Part shown: positions 2,493-2,635 of the stretch, one piece after another
Layout: every line of letters starts with the position of its first letter
How positions within the stretch are numbered: position 1 is the first letter of the stretch
Assembly: GCF_024502345.1 (NCBI RefSeq)
Contig: NZ_JALDNN010000001.1
Source: Escherichia coli
Lineage (GTDB): Bacteria > Pseudomonadota > Gammaproteobacteria > Enterobacterales > Enterobacteriaceae
DNA length: 64,000 bases
Reading direction: 5' to 3' (one strand)
Program-made: the position numbers and the translations under genes
The notes under the pieces: model-generated
Databases searched by the model: none
The model's input: only the letters and a program-made list of their open reading frames with translations
What the model was told of the DNA's origin: nothing

Positions 2493-2525
2493 TACCTCTC
2501 TGGCGGTAGATCCCTGCCGCCAAAA

Positions 2526-2539
2526 TTGCGCTAAATCAA
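2526..2539 (+). promoter_or_regulatory. putative FNR box in hcp promoter
   Basis: TTGCG-CTAA-ATCAA matches the FNR consensus TTGAT-N4-ATCAA in 9 of 10 half-site positions, about 100 bp upstream of hcp. Confidence 0.5.
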
Positions 2540-2597
2540 TCTCCCTTAAAGTTGCATGAAAAATCCCTTTTATCCCCGCGTTAAGCGTCTTAACCTT

Positions 2598-2622
2598 AAA
2601 CATGTATATTAAATATAACTTT
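2598..2622 (+). promoter_or_regulatory. putative NsrR operator in hcp promoter
   Basis: AT-rich imperfect palindrome aacATGTATATTaAATATAACtt resembling the NsrR consensus, immediately upstream of the hcp RBS. Confidence 0.4.
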
Positions 2623-2635
2623 AAAAGGTGTGATC

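Follow-up and report, generated by a model that had tools for sequence, protein, structure and literature searches.

The window analyzed here, a 64,000-nucleotide stretch of Escherichia coli DNA, carries the hcp–hcr operon of nitric-oxide defense next to lysO (ybjE). The lysO reading frame ends at a TAA at 2490–2492, as read from the sequence over 2200–3000, and the lysO–hcp intergenic region (2493–2635) measures 143 bp; the hcp product begins MFCVQCEQ. The hcr start codon lies 11 nt past the hcp stop, and both this spacing and the 969-bp length of hcr are as in K-12. Annotation of K-12 MG1655 gives the same layout—lysO, a 143-bp gap, hcp, an 11-nt gap, and hcr. By direct alignment, K-12 MG1655 and the window are 100% identical over 163 nt spanning the entire intergenic region; published K-12 data therefore apply here base for base. 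A megablast search with 2300–2800 returned matches in 5,424 of 5,426 complete E. coli genomes, annotated as lysO and hcp. Assigned features are collected in Table 1.

Table 1. Genes and regulatory features of the hcp–hcr locus, in window coordinates.
Feature	Position	Strand	Basis
Putative NarL/NarP site, 7-2-7 inverted heptamers TACCTCT-CT-GGCGGTA directly after the lysO stop; center 2500.5	2493–2508		Pattern match
FNR binding site TTGCGCTAAATCAA; center 2532.5, −72.5 from the transcript start, a class I-type activator position	2526–2539		Myers 2013; matrix; conservation
Candidate second NsrR operator AAGTTGCATGA-A-AAATCCCTTTT, about −56 to −34, between the FNR site and the −35 region	2549–2571		Suggested by matrix and conservation
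Probable −10 hexamer TAACCT (T1, A2, and T6 kept)	2591–2596	+	Conservation; −14 to −9 from the implied start
Primary NsrR operator, 11-1-11 inverted repeat AACATGTATAT-T-AAATATAACTT, about −6 to +17	2599–2621		Mehta 2015; matrix; conservation
Approximate hcp transcript start	2605	+	Back-calculated from the published FNR position (−72.5) and the site center (2532.5)
hcp Shine-Dalgarno sequence AAGGTG	2624–2629	+	6 nt 5′ of the ATG at 2636; 90% conserved in Enterobacteriaceae
hcp (hybrid cluster protein) CDS, first gene of the operon	2636–4288	+	ORF listing; sequence reading; megablast annotation
hcr (NADH oxidoreductase partner of Hcp) CDS, second gene of the operon	4300–5268	+	ATG at 4300

The FNR-type 14-mer agrees with TTGAT-N4-ATCAA at 8 of the 10 specified positions, with a perfect right half (ATCAA) and a degenerate left half (TTGCG). 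Table S6 of Myers 2013 (PMC3688515) enters the reverse complement, TTGATTTAGCGCAA, for hcp, together with a ChIP-seq peak, a PatSer score of 13.11, and an ln P of −11.6 against a precision–recall threshold of −10.75; Table 1 of that study lists hcp-hcr as directly activated with FNR at −72.5, citing Filenko et al. 2005. Scoring used a symmetric FNR matrix built from 62 ChIP-positive published sites, hcp excluded, with a training range of 11.8–21.3 bits. Under this matrix the hcp 14-mer reached 13.3 bits, inside the training range and third in the window. Dinucleotide shuffles gave 1.16 chance matches of at least this score per 64 kb, or ~0.003 in the 143-bp intergenic region. Taken alone, then, the FNR motif is not beyond chance in the window, and the site rests on its location, its near-invariance across Enterobacterales, and ChIP-seq on the identical K-12 sequence. 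A CRP site in its place was rejected: The half-sites are TTG..../..ATCAA with 4-bp spacing, not TGTGA-N6-TCACA.

Both higher FNR scores in the window belong to sites of the matrix training set. At 249–262, TTGCCCTAAATCAA scores 14.3 bits and differs from the hcp site by one base; at 56226–56239, TTGACGCACATCAA gives the top score of the window, 16.1 bits. Their reverse complements are the aqpZ/ybjD and ybiY/fsaA ChIP-seq sites, respectively, in Table S6 of Myers 2013 (PMC3688515). Because the offset of 56226–56239 from hcp departs by ~3.3 kb from that in K-12, collinearity between the window and K-12 is not complete.

The primary NsrR operator, AACATGTATATTAAATATAACTT, spans the transcript start just 3′ of the −10 hexamer. 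Extended by one base on each side (2598–2622), it forms an imperfect AT-rich palindrome in which 8 of 12 symmetric pairs are complementary, counted from the sequence. The hcp site in Table 4 of Mehta 2015, a ChIP-seq study of CFT073, is its reverse complement, AAGTTATATTTAATATACATGTT; that site was ChIP-seq positive with an ln P of −23.87 (cut-off −14.28), outranked only by ytfE in the CFT073 genome (PMC5320621). The published ChIP-seq summit, 22 bp upstream of the hcp ATG (PMC5320621), corresponds to 2614 in the window, within the operator. In K-12, hcp is a ChIP-chip target of NsrR and is derepressed by NO and nitrate (PMC5320621), and the hcp promoter has been used in the literature as an NsrR/NO reporter. 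With a matrix from 25 published NsrR sites, again excluding hcp (training range 12.3 to 31.8 bits), the 23-mer scored 25.7 bits and ranked first in the 64 kb, a score reached in 0 of 100 dinucleotide shuffles. Two other NsrR-like 23-mers in the window, TACTTTCATTCGAAATATAATTT at 59691–59713 in the ybiW/ybiV region (18.8 bits) and AAGTTGCCCTGAAAATGAAATTT at 30796–30818 in the ybjL/rcdA region (16.9 bits), are absent from the published CFT073 11-1-11 list.

These results bear out the initial annotation, which had read 2526–2539 as an FNR-consensus site and 2598–2622 as an AT-rich NsrR-like palindrome. The FNR sequence was placed correctly and is the published hcp ChIP-seq site; the palindrome contains the published 23-bp 11-1-11 operator. 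Position-weight-matrix scans and a comparison with mapped positions had been proposed as checks. In the former, both sites pass the published ln P thresholds given above; in the latter, FNR falls at −72.5 from the hcp start and the NsrR summit lies inside its site.

To delimit conservation, we sampled 80 hcp loci, from contigs of one genome per species, and scanned and aligned their upstream regions. The scans cover ~60 (61) Enterobacterales, and block identities to the window are drawn from 40 aligned species. The FNR block is 98% identical in Enterobacteriaceae and 88% in other Enterobacterales, and the block of the primary NsrR operator (site I) 94% and 76%, whereas the corresponding values are 71% and 39% for the linker at 2540–2548 and 43% and 27% for the spacer at 2572–2590. 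Both boxes hold position across about 60 Enterobacterales species while the intervening spacer decays, and the distance from FNR center to site I center is 76.5–77.5 bp in 41 of 61 species. The exact FNR 14-mer, TTGCG included, occurs in most of the ~60 species at −101 to −109 from the ATG, and it is nearly invariant from Escherichia through Dickeya, Pectobacterium, Brenneria, and Serratia. Nearly all of the 61 Enterobacterales have a site I of at least 19 bits, located −23 to −31 from the ATG, and its substitutions preserve the motif, as in AACAAGCATTATAAATGCAACTT of Serratia and Yersinia and ATGTTGTATATAAAATGCAACTT of Providencia; Proteus is an outlier, with its NsrR site at −53. Both the FNR box and the site I repeat, gATGyAT-N5-ATrCATc, had been predicted by Rodionov 2005 from eight aligned enterobacterial hcp upstream regions (PMC1274295). 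Pasteurellaceae, Aeromonas, and Shewanella have other arrangements upstream of hcp, in agreement with the account of regulator switching in the same study (PMC1274295).

Within the FNR site, the left half TTGCG (2526–2530; consensus TTGAT) and the spacer CTAA are nearly invariant across Enterobacterales, and a better left half (TTGAG, TTGAT, or TTGTT) is found in just a few genera. Judged from the alignments, conservation of TTGCG suggests that selection maintains either a sub-optimal FNR site or a function overlapping it.

Conservation also guided the placement of the core promoter. Across the 40 aligned species T2591 is invariant, A2592 is at least 90% conserved, and the TAnnCT pattern is kept, 58.5 bp downstream of the FNR center; TAACCT is probably the hcp −10 hexamer. 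A recognizable −35 element is absent upstream of it. A generic scan of 2400–2700 found neither a sigma-70 promoter nor a terminator; for the promoter this silence is expected because the promoter is weak and activator-dependent, and the scan is uninformative there. With no sigma-70 consensus found, the start and the −10 assignment depend on the published FNR position together with conservation. A +1 at 2605 would be a T, an unusual initiating base, and transcription may in fact begin 1–2 nt from there. By eye, no OxyR-type motif (ATAG-N7-CTAT repeats) was seen in 2493–2635; OxyR control of hcp is reportedly described by Seth et al. 2012. According to Table 1 of Myers 2013, hcp lacks a sigma-70 ChIP peak in glucose minimal medium; a sigma-E site is also entered there (PMC3688515). 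The missing sigma-70 peak is consistent with NsrR repression without nitrite and is not positive evidence for a sigma-70 promoter; the sigma-E entry hints at an annotated sigma-E promoter at hcp.

At the upstream end of the intergenic region, the putative NarL/NarP site departs from TACYYMT-N2-AKRRGTA at two positions, both in the right heptamer, the left heptamer being perfect. Matches at this stringency number 8 in the window against 2.65 expected, and the block is 85% identical to the window in Enterobacteriaceae and 23% in other Enterobacterales. Its center falls at −104.5 if the transcript starts at 2605, and Chismon et al. 2010 are said to place NarL/NarP at −104.5 at hcp. The same stretch encodes a GC-rich hairpin, TGGCGGTAG-ATCC-CTGCCGCCA, with arms at 2501–2509 and 2514–2522, just 3′ of the lysO stop. 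As RNA it has a folding energy of −21.7 kcal/mol (z = −5.7), and it is 98.5% paired over 30 distinct Enterobacteriaceae sequences; four of its pairs show changes on both sides. The hairpin has no U-tract, and the terminator scan of 2400–2700 was negative. An Rfam search of 2300–2800 gave no match at E-values up to 1, which places the hairpin outside the described RNA families; possibly it is a 3′-end or terminator-like structure of lysO. The right heptamer GGCGGTA lies in the 5′ arm of this hairpin, and the conservation argument for a NarL/NarP site is therefore confounded.

With the NsrR matrix built without hcp, a further NsrR-like box at 2549–2571 reaches about 17.7–17.9 bits; this is the third-best score in the window and falls between the lowest and highest training sites. 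It stands out as an island of conservation (63–86% and 65–72%), with flanks falling to 27–43%. Of 61 Enterobacterales, 19 have a match of at least 10 bits at a fixed distance of 49–52 bp upstream of site I, among them E. coli, Kluyvera, Hafnia, Dickeya, Pectobacterium, Yersinia, Budvicia, and Edwardsiella. Where the left half of the box has decayed, as in most Enterobacter- and Klebsiella-like genera, CCTTTT (2566–2571) persists. Table 2 of Mehta 2015 gives a third 11-mer for hcp, AAGTTGCATTA, in the CFT073 study (PMC5320621). E. coli L002 has exactly this 11-mer at the homologous position, where K-12 and the window have AAGTTGCATGA. The upstream half-site thus carries a G/T polymorphism at 2558, with about 17.7 bits for AAGTTGCATGA and 21.1 bits for the L002 form; E. 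albertii carries AAGTTGCAGCA there, at 11.5 bits.

We are highly confident that 2493–2635 is the hcp–hcr regulatory region, combining activation by FNR, repression by NsrR, and probably input from NarL/NarP. Under anaerobiosis, [4Fe-4S] FNR binds TTGCGCTAAATCAA, 72.5 bp upstream of the start near 2605, and activates in class I fashion a weak sigma-70 promoter with TAACCT as its probable −10 and a poor −35. When NO is absent, the iron–sulfur repressor NsrR at 2599–2621 would cover the start site and block initiation, presumably by steric hindrance; NO from nitrite/nitrate metabolism would nitrosylate NsrR and cause its release. NarL/NarP, binding the 7-2-7 site about −104.5, would add a nitrate/nitrite signal. 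Within this scheme, identity with the K-12 sequence, the matrix scores, and conservation are shown, and occupancy by FNR and NsrR in vivo is published; we infer the exact start, the choice of TAACCT as the −10, the steric mode of repression, and the possible second operator for NsrR.

That the FNR-like and NsrR-like matches are chance resemblances in AT-rich intergenic DNA, with no regulatory role, is a reading to which we give almost no credence. Chance alone should yield roughly one FNR match of this score per 64 kb, and imperfect palindromes arise readily in AT-rich DNA; yet published ChIP-seq shows occupancy at both exact sequences (Myers 2013, PMC3688515; Mehta 2015, PMC5320621), both sites are near-invariant with fixed spacing over ~60 species while their flanks decay, and shuffled sequence never attains the NsrR score. 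The NarL/NarP component faces a more specific alternative, in which GGCGGTA (2502–2508) is conserved for a lysO-distal RNA hairpin rather than for response-regulator binding, and NarL/NarP control acts elsewhere or indirectly. Its case draws on the covarying hairpin whose 5′ arm this heptamer forms, on the confinement of both consensus mismatches to it, and on the loss of conservation outside Enterobacteriaceae, where the upstream neighbor is not lysO. We nevertheless think it unlikely: TACCTCT, the left heptamer, is not part of the hairpin, shows conservation as TACYYC, and in E. coli agrees fully with TACYYMT, and the site center coincides with the −104.5 attributed to Chismon et al. 2010. 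NarL/NarP dependence of hcp induction is, moreover, cited in Rodionov 2005 (PMC1274295).

For the box at 2549–2571, two readings have to be weighed. It could tentatively, though less probably than not, be viewed from matrix score and alignment as a second NsrR operator of ancestral origin, placed ~50 bp upstream of site I, at which bound NsrR would serve as an anti-activator of hcp. NsrR there would sit on the stretch separating FNR at −72.5 from the −35 region, where the RNA polymerase alpha C-terminal domain (alpha-CTD) has to dock. On this account most Enterobacter- and Klebsiella-like genera would have lost the box, which would survive in Escherichia, Kluyvera, some Citrobacter, and several non-Enterobacteriaceae families; if so, hcp would be under dual repression, and lineage-specific loss of the box would tune the tightness of its shut-off. 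The alternative is that 2549–2571 is not an NsrR operator and is instead a −35 region, an UP-like element, an alpha-CTD docking site for class I FNR, or the site of another regulator, which we rate at about an even chance. CCTTTT, its most persistently conserved part, survives in many Enterobacteriaceae even where the NsrR-like left half has decayed, and our reading of the alignment puts it at a rigid 19 nt from the TAnnCT −10; in addition, position 2567 is a conserved C where the NsrR consensus has A, and just 19 of 61 species reach 10 bits at the equivalent position. Against this, the left half AAGTTGCAT agrees with the NsrR half-site AAGATGCAT at 8 of 9 positions and is conserved in distant families (Hafnia, Dickeya, Pectobacterium, Yersinia, Budvicia, and Edwardsiella; 17–22 bits), and an 11-mer of the same kind was given for hcp by the NsrR ChIP-seq authors (Mehta 2015, PMC5320621). 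The operator and core-promoter readings of the box are not mutually exclusive.

Taken together, the hcp–hcr gene call is confirmed, and the promoter in the window is intact and of the textbook NO- and anaerobiosis-responsive type. Its FNR and NsrR sites are already published for the identical sequence and add nothing new to biology; the initial annotation was right to see in them support for the gene call more than novelty. Mildly useful by-products are the TTGCG half conserved across the order, the partly conserved second NsrR-like box, and the covarying hairpin that overlaps the putative NarL/NarP site.

Measured against known systems, the locus is that of the E. coli K-12 hcp–hcr promoter, with the same published FNR 14-mer and NsrR 23-mer and the same lysO–hcp–hcr order; the regulatory region shows no difference, whereas the wider window differs, the best matches to 2300–2800 being 99.6% identical. 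Compared with the ytfE and hmp NsrR operators (AAGATGCATTT-N-AAATGCATCTT), the hcp site shares the 11-1-11 arrangement and likewise overlaps the core promoter, but its AT content is higher and its symmetry lower (7 of 11 half-site positions are self-complementary), and it has T for C at the GCAT core (ATGTAT / ATATAA). Like the E. coli nrf and nir promoters, hcp would combine three signals—anaerobiosis through FNR, nitrate/nitrite through NarL/NarP, and NO through NsrR. The geometry differs: FNR sits at −41.5 (class II) at nrf and nir and at −72.5 (class I-type) at hcp, where the main NsrR site lies over the start. NsrR reportedly acts at an upstream site of the nrf promoter (Browning et al. 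2010), and the upstream NsrR-like box at hcp, if real, would resemble that site.
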